Source of the DNA: an uncultured Gemmatimonadaceae bacterium
Lineage (GTDB): Bacteria; Gemmatimonadota; Gemmatimonadetes; Gemmatimonadales; Gemmatimonadaceae
Direction: 5' to 3'
Assembly (NCBI GenBank): GCA_963740355.1
Contig: CAVUDW010000001.1
Location: 1-64,000, forward strand
Length of the DNA stretch: 64,000 nucleotides
Shown: in pieces, positions 190 to 30,767 of the stretch
Numbering within the stretch: the first letter of the stretch is position 1
Layout: each line of letters opens with the position of its first letter
The notes under the pieces: generated by a model
The model's input: the letters and a program-made list of their open reading frames with translations, nothing else
The model's database searches: none
What the model was told of the DNA's origin: nothing
Made by a program: the position numbers and the translations under genes

Positions 190-263
190 GGACGCGTAGC
201 TCAGCTGGTTAGAGCGCTGCTTTCACACAGCAGAGGTCCGGGGTTCGAGTCCCTGCGCGTCCA
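190..263 (+). tRNA. tRNA-Val (anticodon CAC)
   Basis: Full cloverleaf: acceptor GGACGCG/CGCGTCC, D-arm TAGCTCAGCTGGTTAGAGC, anticodon arm CTGCT-TTCACAC-AGCAG, T-arm CGGGG-TTCGAGT-CCCTG; CCA not encoded. Confidence 0.96.
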
Positions 264-302
264 TATCCCCCCGCTCGTGGTCTCTCAGCCATATACACAG
301 CG

Positions 303-2969: not shown

Positions 2970-2983
2970 AGGGTCTGGCGCCG

Positions 2984-4492: not shown

Positions 4493-4496
4493 CCGA

Positions 4497-5555: not shown

Positions 5556-5559
5556 TGCC

Positions 5560-6621: not shown

Positions 6622-6630
6622 CGGCGCGGC

Positions 6631-7926: not shown

Positions 7927-8024
7927 GCGGTATCGAGTGGCTGCGTGCGCGCAGCAGGGCGATGGCCAGACACGCCTTTACGCGCGCGCGGGTAGTAGAG
8001 CCCCCGATGATCAAGTAGTTTTCC

Positions 8025-10354: not shown

Positions 10355-10374
10355 TCGCCGCAACCGACAGACGC

Positions 10375-11505: not shown

Positions 11506-11538
11506 CTCTTGCGCGTGGCATGGTGGCGGGTGCCGCCG

Positions 11539-12909: not shown

Positions 12910-13016
12910 CGGAAACGCCTGACCGACGCCACTGTCATAGGCATGACAAGGCGTCGGTCAGGCGTTTCAAGATGTCGTCGCGTCCGATTCAGGAACAGGG
13001 CGCGACGTGGGCCGGA

Positions 13017-14432: not shown

Positions 14433-14673
14433 GGCAGAAATCCGCGGTAGATGAGTAGCCATCCGGCGGCCCGACTGACATAGCGATTCCACCCCATTGC
14501 GGAAACGCCGTAGTCTCGTGGCTTTGCGTCGCCGGCTTTCGCCGGTTTTGCCTTTGTCATGCGCCCTGTCTCCAGGAAGCACGATCTGCCTTCTGCTCAC
14601 TCGTGTTGAGTGGGTCACCCAGCGTTCGTCTGAAACGAAAGCCGTGACGCTGATATAACCCGACACTGCCTTT

Positions 14674-14690
14674 TGCAACTTGTGTACCAG
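14674..14690 (-). promoter_or_regulatory. Putative sigma-54 (-24/-12) promoter for the DUF1996 genes
   Basis: Minus strand CTGGTACACAAGTTGCA: GG-N10-GC spacing, close to consensus TGGCAC-N5-TTGCW, intergenic, about 240 nt upstream of ATG 14432. Confidence 0.6.
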
Positions 14691-14979
14691 AGCAAAACGA
14701 CAGCGACCTGAGCCATTCGCGTCCAAGGCTACGACGACCTGTCGCGTGCCTTGTAACCAAGCTCGACCATACGGACTGTTTTCTTGACTCGCTCGCTCCA
14801 AGTCAGTGCAAGCCGCAGGCCCGACGGCCTCGGCCGACTCGGCGCATCGCCTCGTACCGGGAGCCCCCTGACATCACCCGCTTCCGGCAGTTCTACTTTA
14901 AGGAGCGACTAATCTCGTTTCCTTCCGTGGAGCGCCCGGTGATGGCGCCCACGTGTGCCTTCCTGCCGCCCGCGCCGTC

Positions 14980-16692
14980 ATGCGTACCGATCTCCTCAGC
15001 CGACTCACCCGCTTCTCCGCGCTCTTCATCCTCGGCTGCGGCAGCAGCAGCGCCACGCCGGGTGACGCACCACCAGAACCACCGGCCGCTGCCGACATCG
15101 CGTTCACCATCAACGCCAGCAGCACCTTCGCCATTTCGCGCTACATCTACGGCGGCAACTTCCTCGAGTCGTCCTCGACGTTCGGCGGCGCGACGCCACC
15201 AGCCGAGATGACACTCAATCGCATGGGTGGCAACCGACTCACGGCGTACAACTGGGAGAACAATTACAGCAACGCCGGCAACGACTACGAATTCCACAAC
15301 GACGAATTCCTCAGCTCGAGCGGCACGCCCGGCCAGGCCGTCAAGACCCGCGCGAATTTCGCCTTCTCGCATGGACAAGCGTTCATGGCGACGGTGCCGA
15401 TGATCGGATACGTGGCAGCCAATGCATGCGGCTGCAACGTCGGCGTGACCGATGCCGATCGCACGAACCGACTGGCGACGCACTTCCGTGTCAGCAAGGC
15501 ATTCAAGGGCAGTCCCTTCACCCTGTCGCCAAACGCTGGCGACGCCTTCGTCTATCAGGACGAATTCGTGAACTGGTTCGAGAACACCTTCCCCGGGCGC
15601 TCCACGCATGCCACGGCACCGGTGTTCTACTCCCTCGACAACGAAGTCGACATCTGGCATTCCACGCACGAAGAAATCAACAGCAACATCGGCGACAACA
15701 AGGACAAGCCGCGCCTGCAGACATACAAGGGGCTCACCGACACGAGCATCGTCTACGCGCGTGCGATCAAGTCAGTCGCGCCGAACGCACTGGTCTTCGG
15801 TCCGGCGGTCGCCACCTACGCCGGCATCGCCGTGCTCGGACGATATCCGACGCCAGACCCGGACTACGGCACGCAGAACTTCGTCGATGTCTACCTCGAT
15901 CGCATGAAGGCGGCCGAAGCGACCTATGGAAAGCGCCTCCTCGATGTGCTGGATGTCCACCACTATCCCGCCATCGGCACCCGTGGCGGCGAAATCACCA
16001 ATGACTATGCACCGCAGGACAGCGCGACGATCTGGGCGCGTGTGCAAGCCCCGCGTTCGCTCTGGGACCCCACCTTCGATGAACAGAGCTGGGTGTCCGG
16101 CGTCACCGCAGGGCCGATCCGACTGCTGCCGCGGCTGAAGGCACAGATCGCGGCACACTACCCGGGCACGAAGATCGCCATCACCGAATACTTCTTCGGC
16201 CGCGGCGGTGACATTTCTGGTGGCATCGCGCAAGCCGACGCGCTCGGCGTGTTCGGTCGCGAAGGGGTGTTCGCTGCGGCCATGTGGCCACTCGCAGGCA
16301 TCTATGCGCAGCCGTGGGCAGGTGATGGTACCAAGGCCTACGCCTACGCGTTCGCAGCCTTCAAGATGTTCCGGAACTACGATGGCGCCGGCGGCATGTT
16401 CGGCGACACCGGACTCCAGGCGACCACCAACAACGTCGCCGCCAGCTCAGTCTATGCGAGCCGCGACAGCGCGGGCAACATCGTCATCATCGCGATCAAC
16501 AAGACCAACACGGCTCGACCCGCACGCATCACGATCAGTGGGGCGACGAACCTCAAGACGGCGAAGTCATGGGCGCTCACCGGCGCGTCTCCCACGCCAG
16601 CTCGCCAGCCGGAGATCGCTCTCGACGGCAGTGGAAGTTTTTCGTACCCGATGCCAGCCCTCAGCGTCACGACCATCGTCCTCACGCCGTAG
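14980..16692 (+). CDS. Glycoside hydrolase family 44 lipoprotein (EpsB-like)
   Basis: Lipobox ILGC; R.GGNRLTAYNWENNYSNAGND, SLDNE (acid/base), LLDVLDVH.Y, YPGTKIAITEY (nucleophile). Confidence 0.9.
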   Translation: MRTDLLSRLTRFSALFILGCGSSSATPGDAPPEPPAAADIAFTINASSTFAISRYIYGGNFLESSSTFGGATPPAEMTLNRMGGNRLTAYNWENNYSNAGNDYEFHNDEFLSSSGTPGQAVKTRANFAFSHGQAFMATVPMIGYVAANACGCNVGVTDADRTNRLATHFRVSKAFKGSPFTLSPNAGDAFVYQDEFVNWFENTFPGRSTHATAPVFYSLDNEVDIWHSTHEEINSNIGDNKDKPRLQTYKGLTDTSIVYARAIKSVAPNALVFGPAVATYAGIAVLGRYPTPDPDYGTQNFVDVYLDRMKAAEATYGKRLLDVLDVHHYPAIGTRGGEITNDYAPQDSATIWARVQAPRSLWDPTFDEQSWVSGVTAGPIRLLPRLKAQIAAHYPGTKIAITEYFFGRGGDISGGIAQADALGVFGREGVFAAAMWPLAGIYAQPWAGDGTKAYAYAFAAFKMFRNYDGAGGMFGDTGLQATTNNVAASSVYASRDSAGNIVIIAINKTNTARPARITISGATNLKTAKSWALTGASPTPARQPEIALDGSGSFSYPMPALSVTTIVLTP

Positions 16693-16713
16693 CAGCGCGT
16701 GAGGACGGGTGCG

Positions 16714-17535
16714 TCACCGTGGAATCGACTGCACCCAGCGATCGAGTCGCGTCAACAGCTCGGCGCGCTTTTGTGCGCTCGTGAAGACGTGATCGGCCGA
16801 ATACATCGTCTCGACCTCGATCTGCGACTCGGGCGCGCCAGGACCGAGCGTCTCGAACACCTGGCGCGGTGAGTTGAACCGGAAGTAGACCCCGCCGCTG
16901 TACACGAACAGCAGCCGTGCGCCGCGCGATGTCATCGCAAGCACATCCTTCCGGAACTGCGCCTCCGTGGGGTACTCGCGTTCAAAGACCGATTGTCCAT
17001 CGGTGTCCGAAATCAACGGACGATCACCACGCACGCGACGCTGGAGAAATCGCACCCAGCGTCCAAGCTGGAGCGGTCGCACGACGTAGTGTCGCACCTT
17101 GAAGCCGGTGCTCGGGTACGCGTAGCCGTCAATGAAGGCCGCCCCCACCACGCGCGGGTCGGTCGACGCGGTCGCGTGCGTGCTGTCGACACCGGAACAG
17201 AGACCGATCAACACGAACTCAGTGATACCGAGTGTCTCGGTGAGGAACTGCATCGCGTCGTCGAGATCGCGCGCTGCGCGAGCAGCCGGCGTCGGCGCGT
17301 CATGCCGCGGCGCACTATCGCCCATGCCCGCCAGGTCGAAGCGAAGCACGGGAAAGCCACTCGCCGCCAGCTTGCGCGCCAGCTCGACATAGATGCGGAA
17401 CGGGCCAACACGGTGATGCATGCCGATGTTCGACACGATCACGGCGCGGGCCGCACCCCGGGCTGGCGTCTTCGGCTCACTCAGCACACCGACCAGGCCA
17501 CCATGCGCGCCGAAGACGACCGCACGTTCGTTCAC
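16714..17535 (-). CDS. Alpha/beta-hydrolase-fold protein with Cys at the nucleophile elbow (similar to exosortase-A-associated hydrolase 1)
   Basis: HHRVGPFR.YV.LAR, LRFDLAGMGDS, GLCSG elbow, C-terminal ADHVF. Confidence 0.8.
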   Translation of the reverse strand: MNERAVVFGAHGGLVGVLSEPKTPARGAARAVIVSNIGMHHRVGPFRIYVELARKLAASGFPVLRFDLAGMGDSAPRHDAPTPAARAARDLDDAMQFLTETLGITEFVLIGLCSGVDSTHATASTDPRVVGAAFIDGYAYPSTGFKVRHYVVRPLQLGRWVRFLQRRVRGDRPLISDTDGQSVFEREYPTEAQFRKDVLAMTSRGARLLFVYSGGVYFRFNSPRQVFETLGPGAPESQIEVETMYSADHVFTSAQKRAELLTRLDRWVQSIPR

Positions 17536-18353
17536 GAGCCACTCCGGGCGAGGAATGTGGTGATGGCCACGGGGATGTTGTGTGACAGTAGCGTGTCGGC
17601 AGGATGGCGACCCGGCGCGTACATGGCCGGATCATCCACGCGCTCGACGGTCACCTTCAGCCCTGCCTCGATCAGACGCTGCTCGAGCGCGGATTGCGCC
17701 GGCGTAAACGCAGCACCGATCAGCAGCAGCCGATCGATCCGACCGACTTCCTCCTGCAACAAGTCGAGGCTGGCCATGTCTGCACGAACGTGGTCAGGAA
17801 ATGCATAGCCCATCACTTCCCCGTCGATACGATGATTCGGCTCCGGGTAGTTCAGCATGCGGAGGCGCACATCTTCGCTGGCATCGAGGGTGGCGACATA
17901 CTCCGTACCCGAGACCACCGGATCCCAGAGCACGAGGTCGCGCACCTTCACGCCCGACGCGCTCGCACGCAGCGCGACGGCGGCCCCGATCCGTGTCCCA
18001 ACCAGCGAGATGCGACGAATCCCCGCCAGGTCGCGCAGCTCGGAGACGGCCGTGCCCACATCTTCCGTCCACTGCGCCAGCGAACCTTCTGTGGCGTCGC
18101 CGTACGAATCACCGGTGCCGAAGTAGTCAAATCGTAGCACATGGAACCCTGCCGCTGCCAGCAGGCCGGCAAGCTTCTGGAAGGCCCAGTGCACCTGACT
18201 GTACTCGTGCGGGCCGGGATAGCAGAGGACGACGCCAGCATCGCGGATCGTCGCTCCGTCTGGAGCATGGTAGATCCCGAACAACTGGCGATCGGGCGAT
18301 CCGAAGAATCGCGGGACGATCTCAGAAGATTTCATGCTGGCGACGCTCGTCAC
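17532..18353 (-). CDS. Alpha/beta-hydrolase-fold protein with Arg at the nucleophile elbow (similar to exosortase-A-associated hydrolase 2)
   Basis: LRFDYFGTGDS.GD, GTRIG elbow, LVLWDPVVSG; 4-nt overlap with the next gene. Confidence 0.8.
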   Translation of the reverse strand: MTSVASMKSSEIVPRFFGSPDRQLFGIYHAPDGATIRDAGVVLCYPGPHEYSQVHWAFQKLAGLLAAAGFHVLRFDYFGTGDSYGDATEGSLAQWTEDVGTAVSELRDLAGIRRISLVGTRIGAAVALRASASGVKVRDLVLWDPVVSGTEYVATLDASEDVRLRMLNYPEPNHRIDGEVMGYAFPDHVRADMASLDLLQEEVGRIDRLLLIGAAFTPAQSALEQRLIEAGLKVTVERVDDPAMYAPGRHPADTLLSHNIPVAITTFLARSGS

Positions 18354-18377
18354 GTGCGTACCCGGGCGACAATTGTG

Positions 18378-19304
18378 TCAAACATTGCGAACGCCAGCCT
18401 TTGGAAGTCGAACCGAAGTGAATACATGTTCATCTTCGACGCAGAAGTCCGCCGTCAGCAACGTTCCGGAGTCGATCCCGGCTCCGAGGGATTCGACGAC
18501 CCGAAGCGCCATCGCTCCGCGTGCCACGTCGACCCATTCGACGGCAACCGCGTCGAAATCGAAAAATACACCCGTGATCGGGTGGAGGCACTTGTAGACA
18601 CTTTCCTTGGCGCTGAAGACGGCTGTGACAAAGGTGCGCCAATCCAGCCGCGCCGTAGGGTCGCCACGGCGGCCGATTGCGTCGCCTTCGGGGAGGACCC
18701 GGCCGAGAATGTCCTCGACGGCCGCATCATTCATCACGCGCTCGCAGTCGATCCCGATCCCGAGCGTCACCGACGCCCACGCGGCCACAGCGACGGCAAT
18801 GCGCGGGGAATGCGAGATCGAGCCCACGATCCCGGCCGGCCACACGGGTGCACCGAGCGCCCCGATCGGCAGCGGCTCGCGAATCAGCGCTGGCTCGCCG
18901 GTGAGCGAAAGAATCGCCTGCGCCGCACAGTGCCGGCCGGCGAGGTAGCCGCGCGCCCGTGACCGAACCGCGCGACCGAGCGACGAGGGAACGTCGTACC
19001 GGCACCGCTCGACGCGACCCGCGCGTGCTAAACGATCCGCATGCTCCGCGCCGCTATGGCCGGCTGCGTCGTTCCTCGCATCGATTTCGTGGAGGCTGAC
19101 AGCGTGTGTGGCGCCGAGCCCCCGGAATAATGCCGGAACCGGACGCGCCCCGAACAGTCGCAGGGTTTCTCCGAGACTGGGCGCGGCCGGCGCGCCCGTC
19201 GGGGCTTGCGCTGCCGTGCCCAGCCCTAGATTCGCGCAGACGGCGTCGCTGTGAACGCGATCCGCTCCCCCGCCCGACCCCTGTTCCGCCGCGTCACTCT
19301 GCAT
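18378..19304 (-). CDS. 4'-phosphopantetheinyl transferase (EntD/Sfp-type); true start may be downstream of 19304
   Basis: YLAGR.CA, P.WP.G..GSISHS, GIGIDCE, FSAKESVYK motifs. Confidence 0.88.
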   Translation of the reverse strand: MQSDAAEQGSGGGADRVHSDAVCANLGLGTAAQAPTGAPAAPSLGETLRLFGARPVPALFRGLGATHAVSLHEIDARNDAAGHSGAEHADRLARAGRVERCRYDVPSSLGRAVRSRARGYLAGRHCAAQAILSLTGEPALIREPLPIGALGAPVWPAGIVGSISHSPRIAVAVAAWASVTLGIGIDCERVMNDAAVEDILGRVLPEGDAIGRRGDPTARLDWRTFVTAVFSAKESVYKCLHPITGVFFDFDAVAVEWVDVARGAMALRVVESLGAGIDSGTLLTADFCVEDEHVFTSVRLPKAGVRNV

Positions 19305-20200
19305 GACTCTCCTACGACGCATTCTCGTCGCCGCCATCACGCTGTTCGTCGCCTGGCAGCTGTTCCACGGTGCGAGAGCGGCGCGATTCGAATACGCCAT
19401 CTTCCGCACCCCACGCAGCGTACCGTCCCGCCCGCCAGACGCGGAGGAACTTGGGCTGCAGGACGTGGAATTTCCATCCGCCGACGGCACGACTCTCAAA
19501 GGGTGGTATCTCCCCTCGAGCAACGGTGCCGCCATGGTGGTCGTGGGAGGAAGCGCTTCCACCCGTGACGGGATGCTGGATCACGCGCGGCTGCTCCATT
19601 CGGGCGGAACCGGCGTTCTGCTGTTCGACTGGCCTGGGTGCGGCGAGAGCGGCGGCCAGATCGGGGTCGGGCCGGGCGAACGGGCCGCCGTGTCTGGCGC
19701 CATCGGCTTCGTGGCCCAGCAGCCGGATGTTCGCGACGGAAGGATCGGGCTGCTCGGCTTCTCCCTGGGCGCCCACATGTCGTTCTTCGTGGCGGCCGCC
19801 GACTCGCGCGTCAGGATGCTGGTCGTTGAAGGCGTCTTCAGTGATCCGTGGAAGCAGGGCCTGGCGGAGTACCGCGATGGCGGCGTTGCAGCGCAGTGGG
19901 GTGCGCTGTTCGGTGACCTCCTTGGTGGGATGGACCGCAAGGTACTCGACGCTGCCGCGGCAGCAGCCGGCATCGCGCCGCGGCCATTCCTGGTCGTGGC
20001 CGGCGGCGCTGACCGCACGGTTCCGGTCGAACTCTCCCGGCAGATTTTCGACCTCGCCCGAGAACCAAAGAGTTTCTGGCTGATCGAGGGCGCCGGCCAC
20101 GGCGAATACCTGACCGCCGATCACGACCTACGGACCACGACTTCGACAGTTCGTCGAAGGGGCACTGGCCGCGACCGATGGCCGAGCCAGCACCCCCTGA
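19303..20200 (+). CDS. Membrane-anchored Ser alpha/beta hydrolase with an apparent +1 frameshift near 20120-20125 (as-is ORF runs to 20334)
   Basis: N-terminal TM; GFSLG / D(RTVP) / GAGH triad. The alternative frame gives a typical terminal helix TYGPRLRQFVEGAL...TGA at 20200. Confidence 0.78.
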
Positions 20201-20249
20201 CGTTTTTCCTGGACTCACCACGCAGGACGCCGCGTTACTCGTGGTCGGG

Positions 20250-23200
20250 TTATGAGATCAGTCCCTTCAGGCGCGAGAACATACCCGAGGATTCCTGCGC
20301 AGTGGCGGCACCGGAGGACGTGCTCGCTGACTGAGTCGCCAACTCCGCGGCCGCCTGCTCCAGCGTCCCCACCAACAGGGCACGAGGATTGAGGTGTCGT
20401 CCGGTCGATTTGCGCACCTGCTCCACCACGCGGAAGCAGAGCAGCGACGTTCCGCCCAACCGGAAGAAGTTGTCGAGTACACTCACCTGCTCCACACCCA
20501 GCGCCGCCTTCCAGGCTTCAGCGAGCATCGCCTCGCTTTCGTTTCGCGGTGCGACCTGCTGCACGGTGGCACTGGCCGCCGCTGCGAACGGAGAAAGCAA
20601 CGCCTCGTACCGCACCACGCCACGCGCGTCGATCGGCAGCGCACTGAGCTCCACGATCCGCTGCGGCACACAGCGACGTGGGAGGCGCGTGCGCGCTGAA
20701 GTACGCAGTTCCGTCTCGGTGTAACGCGCCCCAGGGCGCGGCACCACGTAGGCTACGACCCGCAACTTTCCGGAGGCGTCCGGATGCATCGCGACAGCCG
20801 CTTCTGCAACCGACGGGTGCTGGCGAACGGCCTCCTCGATTGCGGTGGAACTGCACGCCACGCCGTCACACCACACGGTCGCGAAGTCATTCCGAATGAG
20901 TTGGATGCGCCCATCCGAAACGCGACGCGCTCGAACGCCCGTCGCGACCTGCGCCACGCCGCGCGACACCCGAAGGCGACCTGGAATCCCGAAGGGTGAC
21001 TTCCGCCCGTCGGCGTCGACGACATCGAGGCTCGCGCCCGCGACGCCAAGCACATTGGCGTAACTCGTCCCGTCGGTTGTGCGGGCAGCCTGCACGCAGG
21101 TTGCCCCGCCGTCGGTCGGGAGGCCGAACAACGTGAAGGCCGACGTAACTCGCGTCACCAACTTCCACATGTCTTCGCCACTCGCGAAGGCACCTGCCAC
21201 CAGCACACCGCGGAAGGTCGCCGGTGCGCTCCAGGACGTCGCGAGCAGCTGCTGCCACAGTCCGCTGTTTGCGAACAGAACGGTTGCTCCAGAATCCTCG
21301 AGCTCATCGGACAACTCGGAGGCATCTTCGCGGGCATCATCTGACGCGACCACGAGCGTTGCGCCCGCGGTCAGCGGCGCGAGCATTTCGAGCACCGCAG
21401 AAGGAGCCCCGGCGGCAAGGGTGGTGACGACGCTGTCACTCGACTCGATCGCGAGCGCAGCGACGACGTCGCGTGCCTGCGCGGCCAGAAGTGAAGCGCC
21501 CACGGTATGTACCGCGAGTGAACCACCGGCCGCTGGAACGGCGACGAGCACGGATGGCGTCTCGCCTGCGACGCTCACGGCCGTCACCGGGCTCACGTCG
21601 AGCAAATCATCGATGGTCAGTTCATGCGCCACACCGAGGTCGTCGCTATCCCCGTCGGTGATGACCGCCACCAGCTTGGCTGCGGTCGCGACCTGACGGT
21701 GGTAGCCAGCGGCATCGTCCACGTCGAGCAGGAGCACTGCGGCGCCAGCGCCCACGGCACCGAGAGTCGCCACGACACGATCGATTCCGACGGGCAAGGC
21801 AATGCCGACTGGCGCGCCAGGCACGACGCCAGCCTTGGTCAGCCCGCCGGTCACCCGCTGGGCGCGAGAGATCAGTTCAGCGTACGAGATGGACTTTCCA
21901 TTCGCCCGTACGGCGACACGTTCAGGCGCCGACACCGCGATCCGTGCAATCGCCGGAGCCGGTGCCTCGGCGTCGGTCGTGACCGGTACGTCGTGTGCGG
22001 CACGGTCAGCCGCCGACGACAAGTCGATGCTGCCAACCGTTCGCTCCGGGTTCTCCAGCACCGACATGAGGAACGTTCGGAGCTGCACAAGGAACGTTTC
22101 GGCGGTCACACGTTCGAAGAGCTCGGTGCTGTAATTCAATACAGCATAAAGCTTTGTACGCGTGTCCATCATCCACAACATGAGATCATTGGTCGTGAAG
22201 TGCTGCGGCACGTGATACTGCTCCACGCGCAACGATCCCATCGCTGCTGGGCGCTCACGCGCGTCCTGCATCGAGAACAGGGCGCGTACCGGCGGCACTC
22301 GCGTGCCGAGCAGTTCGAACGGCAATTCCTGGTTGCTGAACGAATCGAGTGTCGTGTCACGCACGGCGCGCAACAGATCCGGGAAGGCGAGCGTGGGTGA
22401 CACCCGCGTCCGCAGCAGCACCGTGTTCACGAATGGACCAACGATGACCTCGAGCTCAGGACGTGTTCGCGCACGAACCGGTGAGCCAACCAGCAGATCT
22501 TCCTGCCCGGTGTAGTGATGCAGGATGACGTTATAGGCGGCGAAGACGACCATGAAGAGAGTCGCGTCGTACTTTCGTGCGAGCGCGCGAAGCTGGTCGG
22601 CTTCCTCGATCGTGAACGGAAGCGAGATCTGGTTGCCTGAGTTGTCCGATAGCGACGGCCGCGGGAAATCGGTTGGAAGCGCGAGGTCCTGCAGGTCGCC
22701 AGCCAGCTGCGCCCGCCACCACTCACCCTGCGCCTTGGCCTCAGGCCCGGCGAGCCAGCTCGACTGCCACGCGCTGAAGTCGCCATACGTCACGGGGAGG
22801 GCGTTCAGCACCGGCGCCCGCTTCTCTTCATCAGCGGCATAGAGCTCCGTCACTTCCTTGAGGAAGAGGTCGAAGCTCCAGCCGTCCCAGACCATGCCGT
22901 GCTGCAACGAGTACAGCAGGTGGTGCTGGTCAGCCAGCTTGAAAATGCACGCCCGATAAAGCGGCGCTACGGAGAGATCGAACGTCGTGTACTGCTGCTC
23001 CTGGAAATACGCGACCAGTGCTTCCTGCTGTGCAGCCTCGTCCAGTGCAGACAAATCGCGGCGATCGAGCTTGAAGGTGCTGGTCGGTGCAACGACCTGC
23101 CGGCGTTCGCCGTCGATGGTGTGGAAGCTGGTGCGCAGCGTGGCGTGGCGCGCGATCAGCGCGTCGAACGCACGCTCGAGCCGTCCGAAGTCGAGATCAC

Positions 23201-26200
23201 CGAACAGCCTCCACGACGCACTGTGTGCGTGCGCGGACCGTTGGGTTGGCTCCAGCTCCTCGAGCAGCCAGAGCCGCTCCTGCAGCACCGAGAGCGGTGC
23301 GACGGTCGCGTCAGGGCGATGCGGAATCGACTCGACGACCATCGGTGCCGAGAGCGGAGCGCCGCTGGCGCGCGACTGGTCGACCAGCGCGCCCAGCGCC
23401 CGCACCGTTGGAGCTTCGAAGATCTTCCGGAAGGACAACTGGATGCCGTGGTCGCGACGCAGTCGCGAGAGCACCTGCGATGCCAGCAGTGAATGCCCAC
23501 CAAGCGAGAAGAAGTCCGCGACGACGCTGACCTTCTCGAGCCCGAGCACCTCCGCCCACAATCCGGCGATGATCGTCTCGGCCTCCGTCGCGGGCGCGAC
23601 GAACTCACTTTCAGCCACTACTGCCGCACCGGCCTGCGGTGCGGGTAATGCCTTTCGGTCCACCTTGCCGCTGGGGGTCAGCGGCATCGCGTCCATGCGT
23701 ACGAAGGTGTAAGGCACCATGTAATCAGGCAGCGAGGCCTTGGCGAACGCCCGCAGCTTGTCCGAGATGACGTCGTCGGAATCGGTGACGAGATAGGCGA
23801 CGAGCCGGACGTCGTTGACGCGATCCTCGCGTGCGATCACAGCCGCCTCGCGCACCCCGTCCCACTTCATCAGCACCGCTTCGATCTCGCCCGGCTCGAT
23901 GCGGAAGCCTCGCACCTTGACCTGGTTGTCATTGCGGCCGAGACACTCCAGTTCCCCAGTCGGCAGCAGTCGGACCAAGTCACCGGTGCGGTAGATCAGC
24001 GCACCAGGGGTGGTCGGATCAGCGATGAATCGCTCGGCGGTCAGGTCCGGGCGATTGAGGTAGCCCTTGGTCACGCCGCGACCCGCAATGAACATCTCGC
24101 CCGGAACGCCGATCGGCGTCTGTTGTCCCTGCCCGTCGAGGATCTGTACCACGGTGTTCGCCACTGGCCGGCCAATCAAGACCTTCTTCACCGGCGACGT
24201 CACGCGCGCGAATGTCGACCAGACCGTGGTTTCAGTTGGCCCGTAGCCGTTCCACACTTCAGCCGCACATGAGGTGAGCGTCTCGGCAAGGTCCTTCGGC
24301 ATCGCTTCACCCGTGCAGATCACGCGGAGCTTGGCGTCACCCTTCCAGCCGGACGCGAGCAGCAGACGATAGGTCGCCGGGGTCGCATCGATGAAGGTGA
24401 CGCCGGTGGACTCGACGAGCTGCATCAGCATCGCGCCGTCGGATGCCACTTCGCGCGACGCAAGGACGATCCGTGCGCCAACGGTCAGCGGAAGGATGAC
24501 CTCCGAGACGGCGATGTCGAACGACAGAGTGGTGATCGCCAGCACGGTGTCGACGCTGCGGAGGCCCGGCTCGCGCTGCACACTGGCCAACAGGTTCACG
24601 ACCGATCGGTGAGGCACCAGCACACCCTTCGGCTTGCCAGTGGAGCCGGAGGTATAGATGACGTACGCCGTGTCTTCCGGCTGCGCCGAGCTAGCTGAAT
24701 CGACGGTATCCGCGTCTGGACAGGCGGCAATCGCCGCTGCGTCCGTATCGACGAGAACCGTTGCCGTAGCCGGCAGCGACACCTCCGACGCGATCCTCGA
24801 ATCCGTGATCAGGACCGCCAGGGCAGCGTCACTGGCCATGTAGCTGAGTCGATCTGCCGGATAGTTCGGGTCGAGTGGCACATAACCCGCTCCCGACTTC
24901 AGCGCAGCGACCAGCGCGACCAGCAGTTCAGGCGTGCGATCGAGGCACAGCCCAACGAGGGCACCAGGACGAACCCCCTTCTCGCGAAGCAAGTGCGCGA
25001 GCTTGTTCGCGCGACGGTTCAGCTCCGCATACGACACACGCGTGCCCTGGAACTCGATCGCAATCGCGTCAGGCGTTCGGGCTGCTTGCGCCTCGATCAT
25101 CCGATGCACCAGGGTCTCGGCAGGCAACGCGAGGCCGGTGTCGTTGCACGAGTCGAGCGCGGCGCGGTCGGCATCGGTCAGGATCGGCAGCGTCCCAACC
25201 GTCGCCGACGGGTTTGCCACGAACCCTTCCAGCAACCGCTCGTAGCTCTCAAGCCAGCGTCGAATCGTCGCGGCATCGAAGAGATCACTGTTGTACTGAC
25301 ACTCGAGAATCAGGCCGTCGTCGGTCTCGAGCGCATTCACGAAGAGATCGAAGTTCTCGAAGGCGCGCGGAATACTCACCATCTCGGCAGCGATGCCGTC
25401 AAACGGCATTGCCGACGCTGGCAGTGACCGATCGACGTTGAACATCACCGACACGAGCGGAATGCGGCTCGGATCACGCGGAAGTTGCAGACGCTCCAGC
25501 AGGCTTCCGAATCCAAGGCGCTGATGCTCGAACGCGTCCAGCGCCGTCGTCCGCACGGCAGCGAGATAGTCGCTGAACGCCGTCGTGCCCACGGGGCGGA
25601 CACGGATCGGAAGCATGTTGACGCAGTGCCCAACGAGTCCGGTGCGCCCAGACGCCGACTGTCCGGCGGACGGCACACCAAGCACCAGGTCATCCTGACC
25701 GGACAGACGGTGGACCAGTGTCGAGAAACCTGCCAGCAGCGTTGCGAACATGCTGCTGTTGGTCTTCATGCCAGCCGCGCGCACGGCGCGCGCCAGCTCG
25801 AGTGACAGCGTGCGGTCCTCGCGCCCGGCGTCGAATGTCTTCAGCGCTGGACGAGGACGGTCATTTGGCAGGTCGAGAACGGGCACCGAGCCCTTGTACT
25901 GATCCAGCCAGTACTTCTCATCCTCTGCGCGCTCCGCGCCGTGCGCCGCCTCGGCCGTTTCGCGGGCATAGTCGCTGAACGACTCTGCGGGCGCGAGGTT
26001 GGCGGATGTACCTGAGTGTCGCGCGTTGTAGAGCGCCGCCAGGTCGCTGCCGATGACTCCGAACGACCAGCCGTCACAGATGATGTGATGGGCCGACAGC
26101 ACGAGCTCGTGCAGCTCTGGTGAGAGCTGGAGCAGGCGCGCGCGAACCAGCGGCCCGTGCTCGAGATCGAACTCCTCGGTGACCACGCCGCGCAACACCG

Positions 26201-26561
26201 ATTGCCGCTGCACCTCACGGTCGGTCTCGGAGGAACGCGTCAGGTCAAGCACCGGCATGTCCAGTTCCGTCGCTTCACCGATCATCAGCGTGAGGCCATC
26301 ACTGCTGAAGGTCGACCGCAACGCCTCATGGCGCGCTACGAGATCGCCAAGCGCTGCGCGCAAGGCGATGACATCCAGTGCGCCGCGCAACCGGATGATG
26401 ATGGCTTCATTGTACGCCAGCGACGCAGCCCGCCCCATCTGGGCCGCAGCCCAGACTTCACGTTGTGCTTCGGTCGACGCGACTACAAGCGAGATTGCGG
26501 GGCCTGCGAACGGATCGTACTCCACTCCGCCCACATCCCCGTACTCCAGCGATTCCGACAT
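20250..26561 (-). CDS. Non-ribosomal peptide synthetase, C-A-T-C*-A*-T, with no thioesterase or reductase domain
   Basis: HHIICDG; YTSGSTGKPKG, FDI, NGYGPTE, YRTGDL, GRNDNQVKVRGFRIE, SGKVDR; FFSLGGHS; second C HGMVWDG; degenerate A; FFRLGGTS. Confidence 0.95.
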   Translation of the reverse strand: MSESLEYGDVGGVEYDPFAGPAISLVVASTEAQREVWAAAQMGRAASLAYNEAIIIRLRGALDVIALRAALGDLVARHEALRSTFSSDGLTLMIGEATELDMPVLDLTRSSETDREVQRQSVLRGVVTEEFDLEHGPLVRARLLQLSPELHELVLSAHHIICDGWSFGVIGSDLAALYNARHSGTSANLAPAESFSDYARETAEAAHGAERAEDEKYWLDQYKGSVPVLDLPNDRPRPALKTFDAGREDRTLSLELARAVRAAGMKTNSSMFATLLAGFSTLVHRLSGQDDLVLGVPSAGQSASGRTGLVGHCVNMLPIRVRPVGTTAFSDYLAAVRTTALDAFEHQRLGFGSLLERLQLPRDPSRIPLVSVMFNVDRSLPASAMPFDGIAAEMVSIPRAFENFDLFVNALETDDGLILECQYNSDLFDAATIRRWLESYERLLEGFVANPSATVGTLPILTDADRAALDSCNDTGLALPAETLVHRMIEAQAARTPDAIAIEFQGTRVSYAELNRRANKLAHLLREKGVRPGALVGLCLDRTPELLVALVAALKSGAGYVPLDPNYPADRLSYMASDAALAVLITDSRIASEVSLPATATVLVDTDAAAIAACPDADTVDSASSAQPEDTAYVIYTSGSTGKPKGVLVPHRSVVNLLASVQREPGLRSVDTVLAITTLSFDIAVSEVILPLTVGARIVLASREVASDGAMLMQLVESTGVTFIDATPATYRLLLASGWKGDAKLRVICTGEAMPKDLAETLTSCAAEVWNGYGPTETTVWSTFARVTSPVKKVLIGRPVANTVVQILDGQGQQTPIGVPGEMFIAGRGVTKGYLNRPDLTAERFIADPTTPGALIYRTGDLVRLLPTGELECLGRNDNQVKVRGFRIEPGEIEAVLMKWDGVREAAVIAREDRVNDVRLVAYLVTDSDDVISDKLRAFAKASLPDYMVPYTFVRMDAMPLTPSGKVDRKALPAPQAGAAVVAESEFVAPATEAETIIAGLWAEVLGLEKVSVVADFFSLGGHSLLASQVLSRLRRDHGIQLSFRKIFEAPTVRALGALVDQSRASGAPLSAPMVVESIPHRPDATVAPLSVLQERLWLLEELEPTQRSAHAHSASWRLFGDLDFGRLERAFDALIARHATLRTSFHTIDGERRQVVAPTSTFKLDRRDLSALDEAAQQEALVAYFQEQQYTTFDLSVAPLYRACIFKLADQHHLLYSLQHGMVWDGWSFDLFLKEVTELYAADEEKRAPVLNALPVTYGDFSAWQSSWLAGPEAKAQGEWWRAQLAGDLQDLALPTDFPRPSLSDNSGNQISLPFTIEEADQLRALARKYDATLFMVVFAAYNVILHHYTGQEDLLVGSPVRARTRPELEVIVGPFVNTVLLRTRVSPTLAFPDLLRAVRDTTLDSFSNQELPFELLGTRVPPVRALFSMQDARERPAAMGSLRVEQYHVPQHFTTNDLMLWMMDTRTKLYAVLNYSTELFERVTAETFLVQLRTFLMSVLENPERTVGSIDLSSAADRAAHDVPVTTDAEAPAPAIARIAVSAPERVAVRANGKSISYAELISRAQRVTGGLTKAGVVPGAPVGIALPVGIDRVVATLGAVGAGAAVLLLDVDDAAGYHRQVATAAKLVAVITDGDSDDLGVAHELTIDDLLDVSPVTAVSVAGETPSVLVAVPAAGGSLAVHTVGASLLAAQARDVVAALAIESSDSVVTTLAAGAPSAVLEMLAPLTAGATLVVASDDAREDASELSDELEDSGATVLFANSGLWQQLLATSWSAPATFRGVLVAGAFASGEDMWKLVTRVTSAFTLFGLPTDGGATCVQAARTTDGTSYANVLGVAGASLDVVDADGRKSPFGIPGRLRVSRGVAQVATGVRARRVSDGRIQLIRNDFATVWCDGVACSSTAIEEAVRQHPSVAEAAVAMHPDASGKLRVVAYVVPRPGARYTETELRTSARTRLPRRCVPQRIVELSALPIDARGVVRYEALLSPFAAAASATVQQVAPRNESEAMLAEAWKAALGVEQVSVLDNFFRLGGTSLLCFRVVEQVRKSTGRHLNPRALLVGTLEQAAAELATQSASTSSGAATAQESSGMFSRLKGLIS

Positions 26562-26582: not shown

Positions 26583-27422
26583 TCAGCGAGTCTCTACAAG
26601 TGGTATTTCGACTGTCGGTACTGACACGACCCTCGGTTGCAAGGCAATCGAGCGAACACGTTGTGCCTTGAGGAGCCGCGCAGTTCGGAAGAGGATCCCG
26701 ACGAAACGCGGACCGCGGATCAGGTAGCGTTTCCAGAGTCGTTTGGGATCCTGCAGTAGTCGATATGCCCATTCGAACCCGGCATTCGAGACCCAGCGGG
26801 GCGCCCGACTGATCTGGCCAGAGATGAAGTCGAGACTGGCGCCGACTCCGATCGCGACGGCCGGACGAATCTCGTCCAGGCATCGTGCAATCCAGAGCTC
26901 CTGCTTCGGTGCGCCAAGTGCGACGAACACGATGTCAGGCTTCGCGGCACGCACGCGCTCGAGCACGCCAGCATCACCCTCCTTCGATCCGTCCATCGAG
27001 ACGAATGAGGGATCGATTCCGACGATACGCACGCCGAAGCGCTGCACCAGTCGTTCGGCTGCGAGTTCTGCTGCGCCCGGCTCACCCGGCATGCCGCCGA
27101 GGAGGTACACGCCCCAATTCTGCTCGGCTGCGAGCTGGACGATCGGGATGATCATGTCGGATCCCGACAGCTTCTCCGGAATGCGCTTGCCAAGCAGGCG
27201 CGACGTCCAGACGAGCGGCATGCCGTCGGCGAATGACAGGTCGGCGCGGCGATACGCGCGGCGCAGACCGGCGTGTTCATCCGCCATCACCACGTGATCG
27301 ACGTTCGGCGTGAAGATCGCGCCGCCTAGCCCGCGATGAACGAGATCGCGCACCGCGACGATCGCGTCATCAAAGGCGAGAGCGTCGACCCACAACCGAC
27401 CGAAACGAACACGATGGCGCAC
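26583..27422 (-). CDS. WecB/TagA/CpsF family glycosyltransferase (GT26, EpsA-like)
   Basis: TPNVDH, ADGMPL, SGSD, VALGAPKQE, RAP.W....GFEW.YRL.Q.PKRL..RY. Confidence 0.93.
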   Translation of the reverse strand: MRHRVRFGRLWVDALAFDDAIVAVRDLVHRGLGGAIFTPNVDHVVMADEHAGLRRAYRRADLSFADGMPLVWTSRLLGKRIPEKLSGSDMIIPIVQLAAEQNWGVYLLGGMPGEPGAAELAAERLVQRFGVRIVGIDPSFVSMDGSKEGDAGVLERVRAAKPDIVFVALGAPKQELWIARCLDEIRPAVAIGVGASLDFISGQISRAPRWVSNAGFEWAYRLLQDPKRLWKRYLIRGPRFVGILFRTARLLKAQRVRSIALQPRVVSVPTVEIPLVETR

Positions 27423-27433
27423 GTGCGCGGTCC

Positions 27434-27967
27434 TCAGGCGGCGGAAACAGTGATCGCGCCGAGGAATGCCCCGCGCCCAACCACCGCCAGAGTGCGTCGC
27501 GCAGCGGCGAGCGACGTGTCACCCAGCGGCACCACCAGCACACCGACATCGCAGCCACGGATGATCGGGACCGCGCTGTTGTCTTCCAGCGGCGATGCCA
27601 CCGCGACGATGGTGCGCTGGTCGAGCGCACTGCGATCACGCAGTTCGCCAATGATCCCCTGGACACGCGACGGTGGAACGCGCTCGGCCTCGATCAGACT
27701 CAGCGAGCCTTCGTCGTACGTCCGTCCTGCGTCAGCGAGCGCGCGCGCGACGGCGAGCACGGAGATGCCAGGGTGCGCCGGCACGAGCACCATCGAGCTC
27801 CAGCGATGTTGCGCGAAGGCGAACCAGACTGGCGGCCAGTCTTCAGGCCCTGCGACGATGTCGGGGCGCGCGATCAGGCGCACACCGTCGATCGACTCAG
27901 CTGGGACTACCTCATTGCGACGATCCATCTGAACTCCTGAAGGCTTTGGCTTATCGATGGTGATCAT
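27434..27967 (-). CDS. Stand-alone BY-kinase-like pseudokinase (CpsD/WzeX-like)
   Basis: P-loop-like secondary pattern (LVLV...ARALA, IVAV.SP, D..VLVV..G.T, FLGA) without the Walker A GK; position beside a kinase-less Wzc. Confidence 0.6.
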   Translation of the reverse strand: MITIDKPKPSGVQMDRRNEVVPAESIDGVRLIARPDIVAGPEDWPPVWFAFAQHRWSSMVLVPAHPGISVLAVARALADAGRTYDEGSLSLIEAERVPPSRVQGIIGELRDRSALDQRTIVAVASPLEDNSAVPIIRGCDVGVLVVPLGDTSLAAARRTLAVVGRGAFLGAITVSAA

Positions 27968-29163
27968 ATCTCATCCGAGCGCGTTGTGCGCACCCATTCT
28001 CCTGTACGTCGGGTTGGCTTCAACATCAGTGTGATCTTCCAGACGGCGAAAACGGGAGCCCACATCAAGTCCAGCACGGCACGTGGCCCAGTGCCGGACA
28101 ACACCGCCCCTCGCACGACATACGAGCTCAACAGGACCAAAGCGATCGCCCACGGAACGATCCCCATTCCGCCGGCGATCCCAAGCCACGTCAAAAGACT
28201 CGCGAGACCAAGTCCCGCAACCACCAGCGCACCCAGCGTCGTGAGCGGCGGCACGAGCAGATCGGCCGCCAGATCGAGCGGAATCTTCCCGCCCGTGCCA
28301 CGCGCCGCGCGGAGCAGCGGAGGCACATGCGCCTTCACGAGTTCCAGCCGTCCACCCTCCCACCGCTCGCGCTGGGAGCGTGACGCCGCCGCCGAGGCAG
28401 GCATGTCGCCACGCACTTCAGCCTCATGCACATACGCGATGCGAGTGTAGGTCAGGCCGAGTGCCACGCCGTACTCCACATCCTCGACGATGCTGAACGC
28501 GCGCGGCGGCACCTTGCGGATCAGCGCAGTGCTGAAACCCATGCCATTGCCACGAAGCCCGCACGACAGGCCAAGGCGCTCCCGCCCCAGCGAGCGCACC
28601 GTGTGAAACATCGTCAACGCGATCACCATCAGGCGCGTGCGCCACGACTCGTTCGCGTTGCGGACACCGTACTCCGCCTGAACGGCTTCAGCGCCAGCCA
28701 CGAACCGCGCCGAAAACGCGCTCAGCAGGTTTGCCGAGACGGATGTATCCGCATCGACCACCACAACCGCCGACGCGAAACCATCCGACAACGATGCTGC
28801 GTACGCGTGGGCCAGTGCGTACCCCTTGCCCCGTTCGGTGGCGTGCTGGCGCTCGAGCACCGTCGCGCCGGCCGCTCGCGCGCGATCGGCAGTGTCATCG
28901 GTACAGTTGTCAGCCACCACCAGGATGCGAAACTGTTCCGGCGGATAGTCGAGCGCCTGCAGGCTGGCGATCGTTCCGCCGATCCCGCCGGACTCGTTGT
29001 GCGCCGGGACAATGATGTCGAAGCGTGTCGATCGATCCGCGGCTGGCGGAGCAATCTTCGCCGAGAGCAGCGTCAACAGCGCGAGGTATGCCGTCGCCAG
29101 CAGGACCGGAACCGCAGCCACCCACAGCAGCACGTCCGCCGTGCCGAGCGTCAGCCCACTCAT
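27964..29163 (-). CDS. Membrane-anchored glycosyltransferase family 2 (EpsU/EpsD-like)
   Basis: VPAHNE, ADNCTDDT, RGKG.AL, DAD, GNGM, EDVE, QRERW; N- and C-terminal TM. Confidence 0.9.
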   Translation of the reverse strand: MSGLTLGTADVLLWVAAVPVLLATAYLALLTLLSAKIAPPAADRSTRFDIIVPAHNESGGIGGTIASLQALDYPPEQFRILVVADNCTDDTADRARAAGATVLERQHATERGKGYALAHAYAASLSDGFASAVVVVDADTSVSANLLSAFSARFVAGAEAVQAEYGVRNANESWRTRLMVIALTMFHTVRSLGRERLGLSCGLRGNGMGFSTALIRKVPPRAFSIVEDVEYGVALGLTYTRIAYVHEAEVRGDMPASAAASRSQRERWEGGRLELVKAHVPPLLRAARGTGGKIPLDLAADLLVPPLTTLGALVVAGLGLASLLTWLGIAGGMGIVPWAIALVLLSSYVVRGAVLSGTGPRAVLDLMWAPVFAVWKITLMLKPTRRTGEWVRTTRSDEI

Positions 29164-30767
29164 AACGCGGAGCGCGGCAATGTGACGGTCGCTTCAACAT
29201 GTGATGACGTCGGGCGGAACGCGAAGATCCGCATGCGCGCCGGGAACGCGCCCGACGCCACGGCGATCTTGCCGCATGTCGCGAGTGCCAGGCCGGCGGT
29301 CAACGTAGAGTTCAGTCCCTGCGTGCCGAGATCGCCCCACGCCTGCATCATGTAGGTCACGAACATCGTGAGCGAGATGGCGCAGGCCGTCCGCTCACTC
29401 GATGTTCGCGCGAAGAAGTACGCACGCCGCGCGAGAAATATCCCGAATGGAATCGGCATCCAGAGCAGCGTGAATCCTACGAAGCCACCCACAGTCCACA
29501 GCCAGAGGATGCTGTTGTGCGCCTGGTACTTGTACTGCGCGAAGAACTGCGAGATGTCATCGGCCTTCACCATCTCGATGTATTCGTGCCCCCAGCCGGC
29601 GCCAAGCAGCTTCCCCTGCTTCAACGTCACGAGCAGGTTGAAATTCTCGATGTCTCGCGTGTCGCTCGATCGATCATCCTGCGACACGACCGACATGATC
29701 AGCTTGGCGGGCTTGAACACCGCAGCGTTGCTGCGCTGGCCGACGACGGCGTAGACCGCGATCAACGGGAGCGAGTACAGCAGGATCTTCTTCAGTTGCT
29801 GCTTGATCGGTCCACGGAAAATGATGAAGACGATCAGCAGGTCGACCAACAGGTTCACGAACGCCAAACGGCGGTTGTTGATCACGATGCCGTAGAGGAT
29901 GTACAGGCCGACCACCAACAGCATCACCAGATTCTTGTAGTTCGGGACGTGCATGAACCGGACGACCAGCGCCACCAGGCAGATCACGAACAGGATCGAG
30001 TCATAGTGACTGGTCAGCGTCTGCGGCTCGAACCCCATCGGACGCGCGATGCCAAAGTAGAACTTGGTGGCAATCGCAATCTTGATGCAGGCCGCAACCA
30101 GCATCAGGTTCACGGCCTTGTGGAAGTCTCGTGCATCACGCACACAATACGAGAATAGTGCCGTCACGCTCGGCAGCCAGAACAGCTGACGCATCTGCCA
30201 CAACGTCTGCTTGAAATCGCCGCCGCGCACCCCGACGCCCCACACCACCAGCCACAGCACCGTCAGGAGCGAGACGCCGACGACGACGAACAGCACGTTG
30301 GTCGTGGGCAGTCGGCCGAGGCGATCGATCTTGATGCGGAACGCGACACGCATGAGCGCCATGAAGGCGATCAACGAGTACAGCATGTCGACGAACGAGA
30401 ACCGCAACGCCTCGATCGGCAGGATCTTGTTCAGGTTCTCGAATAACAGCACGTTGAGACCGAACAGCGGCGGCGTCCAGAGCACACCAGACGGCAGCTT
30501 GATCTGGTTCGCATCGGCGAGCGCCGCCAGAAACACGAGGCCGAACAACGGCGCCCGCATCGGCATCGCCACGAACAGGTACACGATCAGGACCAGCACC
30601 AGGGGCACGATCCCGACCAACGGATTCCCCGACGCGAACGTCAGGCCAAGCGACGCAAGCACGACCGCGCAAATGAACGCGATCATGCCCGGGCCGATGG
30701 TCGGCGCTGACGGTCGAGGCCACGCCGATGGCGCAGCCGTCGTCGGATTCACCGTCGGGGAACTCAC
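29160..30767 (-). CDS. Wzy-type EPS polymerase / O-antigen ligase family protein
   Basis: 535 aa multi-TM; NNRRLA, RDIENFNL, G.GWGHEY, HNSILWLW..GG.VG. Confidence 0.8.
   Translation of the reverse strand: MSSPTVNPTTAAPSAWPRPSAPTIGPGMIAFICAVVLASLGLTFASGNPLVGIVPLVLVLIVYLFVAMPMRAPLFGLVFLAALADANQIKLPSGVLWTPPLFGLNVLLFENLNKILPIEALRFSFVDMLYSLIAFMALMRVAFRIKIDRLGRLPTTNVLFVVVGVSLLTVLWLVVWGVGVRGGDFKQTLWQMRQLFWLPSVTALFSYCVRDARDFHKAVNLMLVAACIKIAIATKFYFGIARPMGFEPQTLTSHYDSILFVICLVALVVRFMHVPNYKNLVMLLVVGLYILYGIVINNRRLAFVNLLVDLLIVFIIFRGPIKQQLKKILLYSLPLIAVYAVVGQRSNAAVFKPAKLIMSVVSQDDRSSDTRDIENFNLLVTLKQGKLLGAGWGHEYIEMVKADDISQFFAQYKYQAHNSILWLWTVGGFVGFTLLWMPIPFGIFLARRAYFFARTSSERTACAISLTMFVTYMMQAWGDLGTQGLNSTLTAGLALATCGKIAVASGAFPARMRIFAFRPTSSHVEATVTLPRSAL

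Follow-up and report, generated by a model that had tools for sequence, protein, structure and literature searches.

A two-module nonribosomal peptide synthetase (NRPS) is encoded in a 64,000-nucleotide stretch (hereafter the window) from an uncultured Gemmatimonadaceae bacterium (GCA_963740355.1, contig CAVUDW010000001.1, positions 1 to 64,000). Its second module, built of condensation (C2*), adenylation (A2*) and carrier (T2) folds, is kept by selection without adenylation capacity and without the canonical second His of the condensation motif, T2 being the attachment point of the release unit. With a probability of about one half, we read it as a conserved non-elongating hand-off module, the T2 cargo of which would be taken by a heterodimer of two hydrolase-like proteins, hydr1 and hydr2, acting in trans. 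The domains of the first module (C1, A1 and T1) and the neighbouring genes are listed in Table 1.

In the translated open reading frame (ORF), the C2* motif HGMVWDG spans residues 1221-1227, the equivalent motif of C1 being HHIICDG. Likewise, VAVPAAGGS (1673-1681), FGLPTDG and LPIDARGVVR (1975-1984) of A2* are the counterparts of YTSGSTGKPKG, GYGPTE and PSGKVDRK in A1. When aligned by column with relatives that have an intact A2, the window A2* reads VPAAGGSLAV, APSA, TLFGLPT, VATGV and GVVR at A3, A4, A5, A7 and A10, against TSGSTGKPKG, FDIA, NMYGPTE, YRTGD and GKVD in those relatives; A8 is likewise altered in the alignment of 28 homologues described below, and the core of A2* is more degraded than its C-terminal subdomain. 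The joint failure of five motif columns beside well-conserved flanking domains is no chance pattern. T2 retains FFRLGGTS (residues 2032-2039, window 20445-20468), and the stop codon follows 64 residues past Ser2039. A Pfam scan of all 2103 residues detected two Condensation, AMP-binding, AMP-binding_C and two PP-binding matches and no other family, hence no thioesterase (TE) or reductase (R) family. Scanned alone, C2* matched Condensation (PF00668) with 289.8 bits over profile positions 3-452 of 456, and T2 matched PP-binding (PF00550) with 28.5 bits; A2* reached 86.1 bits against AMP-binding (PF00501), with the best stretch covering profile positions 5-108 only, and 46.5 bits against AMP-binding_C (PF13193). 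The preliminary description of this DNA had noted the HGMVWDG motif, the stripped A2, the intact frame, the FFRLGGTS of T2 and the early end of the protein, and all of these are found where it placed them. Its remark that there is no release domain holds for the NRPS polypeptide and fails for the system, in which release is encoded in trans by hydr1/hydr2.

A homologue search with residues 1080-2103 as query provided proteins of about 2100 residues with 28-59% identity across module 2, the named ones being from Gemmatimonadaceae and Polyangiaceae, and 28 full-length homologues among them were aligned. In all 28 the second-His position of C2 is occupied by another residue (G in 17, N in 7, A in 2, R in 1 and T in 1), none carries the A2 core motifs, and every one keeps the T2 motif DNFFxLGG[T/H/S/Q]SLLC, Ser included. 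The stripped state persists down to about 35% identity, and the remaining active-site residues of C2* (H1221, W1225, D1226, G1227, W1228 and S1229) are invariant in this alignment. Mean pairwise identity was 0.52 for C1, 0.61 for the A1 core, 0.65 for T1, 0.48 for C2* and 0.55 for T2, and it was 0.28 and 0.36 for the core and the subdomain of A2*. Moreover, the mean major-residue frequency of C2 was 0.587 in 36 rows lacking the second His (His-less) versus 0.601 in 48 rows with both His (HH), and C2* appears, from these alignments, to be under no global relaxation.

The ratio of nonsynonymous to synonymous substitution (dN/dS, w) was computed by the Nei-Gojobori method on close relative pairs of the His-less clade, the window itself having no close enough relative. 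In five main pairs of relative loci (L039/L040, L032/L033, L032/L035, L033/L035 and L003/L004), it was 0.10-0.27 for A2*, 0.06-0.13 for C2*, 0.04-0.10 for A1, 0.07-0.11 for C1 and 0.02-0.07 for T1; for T2 it was 0.02-0.13 in the four pairs having this domain. A further pair, L005/L006, gave 0.14 for C2*, 0.11 for A1 and 0.20 for C1, with no value for A2*. Two pairs were noisier, namely L041/L042 (0.37-0.55 across all domains) and L029/L037 (dS saturated). An AlphaFold2 model of module 2 from a 30-row alignment had a mean predicted local distance difference test (pLDDT) value of 87.3 and a predicted template modelling score (pTM) of 0.79, with the A2* core mostly at 85-96, and its best Foldseek matches were NRPS C-A(-T) modules. 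On this evidence A2* is a folded spacer on which constraint is relaxed yet real, and the constraint on C2* is that of a working domain. The idea, already present in the preliminary description, that module 2 is kept for a non-elongating role is supported by the state of all 28 homologues and by purifying selection on A2* and C2*.

The release unit proposed here is encoded downstream of the NRPS on the same strand, where a phosphopantetheinyl transferase (PPTase) gene is followed by hydr2 and hydr1, the start of hydr1 overlapping the stop of hydr2 by 4 nt. The nucleophile Cys113 of hydr1 is invariant in 39/39 homologues and its His249 is found in at least 90% of them; hydr2 has the motif G-x-R-x-G, with Arg121 in at least 90% of 20 homologues. 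The best families were TIGR03100 for hydr1 (87.8 against a cut-off of 168.45) and TIGR03101 for hydr2 (90.3 against 202.75), and neither family had a match above cut-off in the window's own genome. Profile searches of PDB sequences with hydr1 and hydr2 returned generic small esterases only and no functional lead. One or both genes were matched at 44 of the 88 loci of the wider family (23/38 His-less and 21/50 HH), and hydr2 starts less than 100 nt from the NRPS stop in 21 loci. In five of the eight relatives that lack A2, T2 is followed by a classical TE (GGSMG), and in two others (L084 and L092) hydr2 is fused to T2 with hydr1 next to it (profile E-values 1e-40 and 9e-44).

Furthermore, the predicted hydr1-hydr2 complex obtained ipSAE interface scores of 0.88, 0.87 and 0.89, the best of three controls reaching 0.00; the mark applied was met by 116/157 solved complexes and 2/215 mismatched pairs, a calibration that is rough here, custom alignments having been used. 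Contact agreement between runs was at least 82%, partner pLDDT was at least 86, and the predicted interface reaches hydr1 residues 245-255, around His249. The model supports hydr1-hydr2 binding and does not show it, and hydr2 has the look of an obligate, nucleophile-less partner of hydr1. That T2 presents cargo to a trans-acting Cys enzyme, as had been suggested, agrees with the recurrent hydr2/hydr1 pair, the T2-hydr2 fusions and the predicted complex. The preliminary description is thus supported in part: its broad reading stands, and what it missed is the nucleophile-less partner of hydr1, the intact Gly-Gly-type ancestors and the recurrent loss of A2. A second pair lies elsewhere in the same genome (contig 2, locus L103, 1-17000), where a PPTase, an NRPS (TubC_N docking, C-A-T), a polyketide synthase (PKS) with ketosynthase, acyltransferase, ketoreductase and acyl carrier protein (ACP) domains, and an NRPS (C-A-T, no TE) are followed by hydr2-like (GIRLG) and hydr1-like (GLCSG) genes and a type II thioesterase. 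Polysaccharide loci are therefore not the only places where the hydrolase pair occurs.

In the proposed mechanism A1, as the sole working A domain, would activate an alpha-amino acid (specificity columns DISDITGVWK), and C2* together with the shrunken A2* would add no residue, serving as folded domains that position phosphopantetheinylated T2. Modules of this kind have a parallel in PKS, where non-elongating KS0 modules occur, and module 2 would be their NRPS counterpart. The cargo may pass from T1 to T2 through the C2* tunnel by thioester-to-thiol transfer, and in such a transfer the second His would be dispensable, as no His has to position a free pantetheine thiol. In this context, the pantetheine thiol of holo-AB3403 is reported to reach the His of the HHxxxDG motif (PMC10510592), and carrier-to-carrier traffic is documented for the shuttling enzymes CmaE, SyrC and LgnA and for the spontaneous transthiolation from PacP to PacH (PMC8748450). 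The Cys of hydr1 would then accept the cargo from T2 and pass it on; judging from the operon, the acceptor would probably be a lipid-linked exopolysaccharide (EPS) repeat unit, water being possible as well. The PPTase of the operon is taken as dedicated to the NRPS and counts in favour of the hand-off reading.

To place the window in a wider family, metagenomes were scanned with the C2 signature WDGWSFD, which gave 335 relatives; the 80 best, from 79 distinct loci, were retained. Together with genome loci they comprise 89 C2 motifs in 88 loci, falling into six groups: HH with intact A2 (25 rows), HH with degenerate A2 (15), HH without any A2 (C-T; 8), His-less with degenerate A2 (32), and contig-truncated His-less (6) and HH (3) rows. 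A tree of 85 C2 rows and four C1 outgroups, which traces the C2 domain and not A2, was obtained by a quick LG+G4 search. Its deepest branches are the long rows L010 and L087, of unsure placement and neither with an intact A2, and HH rows with intact A2 come next. All His-less rows except the long-branched L010 form a 36-row clade (SH-aLRT 96), within which the second-His position is G, N, A, R, T or S; the window belongs to a 7-row HG subclade (support 98) nested among HN rows. The sister of the 36-row clade consists of L049 and L091, HH rows with degenerate A2 (support 84), and a separate 20-row clade (support 99) of HH rows with degenerate or missing A2 sits inside the intact group.

On this tree the minimum number of changes is three for the A2 state and two for the His state. 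A single clade for all A2-lost rows was rejected by the approximately unbiased (AU) test (51 versus 27 rows, delta lnL 148, p-AU 7.7e-5), which left truncated rows free and used groups named once the tree was known. As far as the tree indicates, there were at least two losses of A2 and, L010 aside, apparently one of the second His, which came when A2 had already decayed; the His position then drifted among unlike residues. The length of A2* shrinks from 509 down to 253 aa in some lineages, and short relatives such as L038 keep little beyond its C-terminal subdomain. At L038 (3812-15856, + strand) two family NRPS genes stand in tandem, an intact C-A-T-C-A(Gly-type)-T followed by C-A-T-C*(HA)-A*(253 aa)-T, an arrangement suggestive of donation from the T2 of one protein to the C1 of the protein after it. 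In L004 another NRPS (16614-23012, - strand), accompanied by a hydr2/hydr1 pair of its own, stands tail-to-tail with the orthologous cassette.

The specificity columns of the A domains were mapped via alignments with AB3403 (DILQLGVVWK) and DhbF module 1 (DILQLGLIWK), both described as glycine-type (PMC10510592). The intact A2 of relatives reads DILQLGMVWK in 15/22, A1 of the HH groups also has mostly Gly-type columns, and a row's own A1 and intact A2 share Gly-type columns in 8 of the 18 rows readable for both. These columns suggest that the ancestor was probably an enzyme of Gly-Gly type, its two A domains duplicating each other; with both domains of the same Gly type, A2 would have been redundant and therefore losable. 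A1 reads DISDITGVWK in the window and in 22 of the 33 His-less rows with a readable A1, and five of these columns depart from the Gly pattern, so the A1 substrate is not assigned as Gly. The A4-A5 region of A1 is best matched by AB3403 and DhbF module 1. LgrA, the top PDB match for A1, was rejected as a specificity guide, its score being the sum of two A-domain matches. Other A1 types occur in close relatives (DILFLGIVFK in L001, DAIFTGIIWK in L021, Gly-type in L028 and L031), and module 1 is thus exchanged between close relatives while module 2 stays.

Several points weigh against the hand-off reading. We infer the T2 cargo and the T1-to-T2 transfer, and mutation of the second His is reported not always to abolish condensation (PMC11546977), so C2* could still condense, above all in HN relatives. 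In view of the family's history, direct loading of T2 by A1 is plausible; HH relatives in which A2 is dead or has been deleted seem to depend on it. The pair at L103 lies outside any EPS locus, the acceptor need not be a sugar, and the polysaccharide link rests on synteny. On the side of the data, the locus sample is biased towards the query by the WDGWSFD pattern and the choice of the best 80 of 335, and the quick tree search, the grouping in the AU test and the placing of the window outside the dN/dS pairs count in the same direction. The scaffold or docking role and the transacylase role of C2*-A2* are not separable in silico. A more specific form of the hand-off scheme, which we offer tentatively and regard as rather doubtful, makes C2* a new functional class of condensation-fold domain, 'C0', that moves an acyl or aminoacyl group from the pantetheine of T1 to the bare thiol of T2 and so shifts the chain with no elongation; T2, carried on the A2* spacer, would feed a heterodimer aminoacylating a lipid-linked EPS unit, and the decoration would vary by swaps of module 1. 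In a bolder variant, T2 would donate back to the N-terminal C1 and the enzyme would be iterative.

An unlikely alternative is that A1 loads both carriers, with C2*-A2* as an inert scaffold and hydr1/hydr2 taking aminoacyl-T2. The Gly-type columns that the intact A2 of relatives shares with the own A1 in 8/18 rows make A2 redundant, and the scheme would fit both the repeated A2 loss and its deletion in HH C-T forms, which seem to need another T2 loader; one A domain loads iteratively in fungal SidD (PMC8162485), and capreomycin CmnI is loaded by CmnA-A1 (PMC12400406). However, the product of C1/T1 would be left without exit, though purifying selection on both domains is strong (w 0.07-0.11 and 0.02-0.07 in the five main pairs), and a conservation of C2* equal to that of C1 would go unexplained. 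Condensation by C2* without the second His, joining T1 cargo to an A1-loaded aminoacyl-T2 or, glidonin-like, to a free amine or hydroxyl, would draw on the invariance of the rest of the active-site motif, on the His mutants that keep activity (PMC11546977) and on the glidonin C-A*-T, which condenses putrescine from the same terminal position without TE (PMC10587159). We consider it quite unlikely, as a position free among G, N, A, R, T and S is unlike a nucleophile-positioning residue, the glidonin paper cites an H9721A mutant as a sign that the second His positions the substrate (PMC10587159), and condensation to a free nucleophile would not need the T2 serine, which is nonetheless invariant.

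Module 2 might also be a cargo-free docking platform, bringing to T1 either hydr1/hydr2, the anchored hydrolase or the EPS machinery of the membrane, as the X domain (HRxxxDD), a dead C-fold, recruits trans enzymes (PMC11546977). Ten columns conserved at 0.9 or more in the His-less clade and below 0.6 in HH rows (e.g., R1108, F1233, R1349, P1423 and N1476), and H1111, W1117 and R1426, where each group has a different conserved residue, could mark a new surface, and there is a conserved C-terminal motif past a disordered linker. An invariant T2 pantetheinylation motif in 28/28 homologues, a T2 w of 0.02-0.13 and the direct fusion of hydr2 to T2 in two relatives, at the usual TE place, make such a platform improbable. 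Finally, simple decay, which would leave module 2 a functionless remnant, could account for the vanished catalytic motifs and for the erosion of A2* from 509 to 253 aa in some lineages. It is hardly credible, since the frame is open, the state is family-wide (28/28), w is far below 1 and the fold is confidently predicted; in particular, the closest homologues are also stripped and their dN/dS is low, where the preliminary description had reserved the case of intact close homologues and a neutrally evolving copy. Recent decay is contradicted on the same grounds.

Among known systems, the X domain of glycopeptide synthetases precedes a TE rather than an A*-T pair. It resembles C2* in being a C-fold with an altered active-site motif and a non-condensing role (PMC11546977), and differs in carrying HRxxxDD in place of HGxxxDG; neither a P450, the kind of enzyme that X domains recruit, nor a TE was matched among the window ORFs scanned. 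The terminal C13-A*-T13 of the glidonin synthetase of Schlegelella brevitalea shares the degenerate A* and the missing TE, and short relatives such as L038, with hardly any A* left beyond its C-terminal subdomain, come close to it as well; its A* activates no amino acid, and A*-T has been proposed to maintain folding (PMC10587159). In contrast with C13, which keeps HHxxxDG and condenses free putrescine, C2* has lost the second His; T2 keeps its Ser throughout, and the conserved partner is a pair of hydrolases. The kutzneride system, cited in the same paper (PMC10587159), likewise has a non-functional A* beside a carrier loaded by another enzyme. Unlike that case, no stand-alone A domain was detected among the window ORFs scanned. 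The C domain of the kutzneride system is presumed active, and the second A domain of SidD is reportedly degenerate.

In SidD (PMC8162485) and in CmnI/CmnA-A1 (PMC12400406), as possibly here, one A domain serves several carriers, and repeated loss of A2 is therefore possible in this family. The C domains of those systems are active and elongating, unlike C2*, and these systems are not known to be tied to a polysaccharide locus or to hydr1/hydr2. SyrC and CmaE reportedly have an active-site Cys. CmaE, SyrC and LgnA, which have an alpha/beta fold as hydr1 does, remove the aminoacyl group from a carrier thioester, bind it covalently and pass it on (PMC8748450). These shuttles deliver to another carrier, and hydr1 differs from them in having a nucleophile-less paralogue as predicted partner. 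The exosortase-A-associated hydrolases 1 and 2 (TIGR03100/TIGR03101) are found in a ligase/ACP neighbourhood. They too form an adjacent pair near exopolysaccharide genes with a carrier-protein system, and the hydr pair is adjacent in other loci of the family and in L103 as well; however, the window proteins score far below the cut-offs, and an NRPS replaces ligase and ACP. General family scans of the window ORFs detected no exosortase, the genome itself not having been searched for one, and the PEP-CTERM paper of Haft 2006 (PMC1569441) does not mention hydrolase, acyl carrier, acyl-CoA or decarboxylase. Literature searches, covering few subscription journals and no supplements, returned no description of such an NRPS within an EPS locus. 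None of the nearest cases joins a C lacking the second His to a dead A and a live terminal T, with a hydrolase/pseudo-hydrolase release pair and a polysaccharide locus.

Past T2, most family members of all classes have a Pro/Ala-rich linker and then a short basic-hydrophobic motif such as GMFSRLKGLIS, GGLFKRLQGLLKR or GKRLRGLFGFGKRE. Twelve relatives lack this motif, and 11 of them have hydr2 immediately next to the NRPS. The motif is reminiscent of a MinD-type membrane-targeting helix or of a docking peptide. The hydrophobic moment of the highest 11-residue stretch in the window tail was reached by 246 of 2000 shuffles and is not significant, and it is stronger in the tails of some relatives (30 and 78 of 2000). 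An amphipathic membrane anchor is a lead, and a docking peptide is equally open.

Table 1. Positions of the NRPS, its domains and other genes in the window.
Feature	Position	Strand	Remarks
NRPS gene	20250..26561	-	2103 aa, single intact ORF; C1-A1-T1-C2*-A2*-T2 + tail
C1 condensation domain	25155..26480	-	HHIICDG intact
A1 adenylation domain	23637..25094	-	full set of core motifs; specificity columns DISDITGVWK
T1 carrier domain	23376..23579	-	FFSLGGHS, Ser1024
C2* condensation-fold domain	21972..23306	-	HGMVWDG at 22881-22901, second His replaced
A2* degenerate adenylation-fold spacer	20592..21944	-	without A3/A4/A5/A7/A10 residues
T2 carrier domain	20337..20540	-	DNFFRLGGTSLLCF; Ser2039 codon 20445-20447
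C-terminal tail	20253..20336	-	low-complexity linker and basic-hydrophobic motif GMFSRLKGLIS
Alpha/beta hydrolase	19303..20334	+	N-terminal hydrophobic anchor, GFSLG Ser; convergent with NRPS
Sfp/EntD-type PPTase	18378..19562	-	ORF as listed; homology from about residue 140-195
hydr2	17532..18353	-	alpha/beta fold; Arg at nucleophile position (GTRIG); TIGR03101-like, below cut-off
hydr1	16714..17535	-	alpha/beta hydrolase; Cys nucleophile (GLCSG), His249; TIGR03100-like, below cut-off
EpsA-like WecG glycosyltransferase	26583-27422	-	21 nt between this gene and the NRPS start downstream
Conserved unknown ORF	27434-27967	-	
EpsU-like GT2	27964-29163	-	
Wzy polymerase	29160-30767	-	
Hexapeptide-acyltransferase/FkbH-domain fusion protein	43050-45413	-	TIGR01686, 275 bits
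Large SLBB export protein	303-2969		
Flippase-like gene	2984-4492		
Second Wzy	6631-7926		
DegT aminotransferase	52289-53446		

Around the NRPS, the true start of the PPTase is probably downstream of the listed one, because its homologous part begins near residue 140-195. The ORF of the anchored Ser hydrolase and the 3' end of the NRPS, which lies on the opposite strand, overlap by 85 nt; the homology of this hydrolase to relatives ends at residue 273 of 343, and it was matched at 16/38 His-less and 0/50 HH loci. The EPS genes upstream of the NRPS are of Wzx/Wzy type and share its strand; beyond Wzy they encode a polysaccharide co-polymerase (PCP), then an export protein and, after it, a phosphoglycosyl transferase. 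The EpsV-like chain-length (PCP) gene (30764-32307, - strand) consists of two overlapping ORFs in different frames, 31603-32307 covering model positions 24-113 and 30764-31660 covering 183-484; the cause could be a frameshift, a gene split or an error in sequencing. Positions 1-16700 and 33000-55400 consist nearly entirely of polysaccharide genes, at least two Wzx/Wzy sets' worth, including two GH44, two Acyl_transf_3 and three Bac_transf genes. FkbH matches were also found near the NRPS in L041, L082, L087, L091 and L092, and the FkbH-domain protein could be a trans-loader of a carrier domain. EPS genes were matched at 24/88 loci, a lower bound given the many short contigs and the use of the window's own proteins as the only queries.

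In brief, isolated cases of a dead A domain or of a dead C-fold domain are known, and here the two are combined in the terminal module of an environmental family that is large (335 metagenome relatives). Its history can be traced from an intact ancestor, probably of Gly-Gly type, through repeated A2 loss to what appears to be a single loss of the His, and the family has a defined unit, a Cys hydrolase with a nucleophile-less paralogue, in place of a thioesterase. If the hand-off reading is true, module 2 would be the NRPS counterpart of the non-elongating PKS modules, the uncharacterised hydrolase-1/hydrolase-2 pair of exopolysaccharide loci would gain a role, and the system would point to NRPS-made aminoacyl decorations of bacterial exopolysaccharides.

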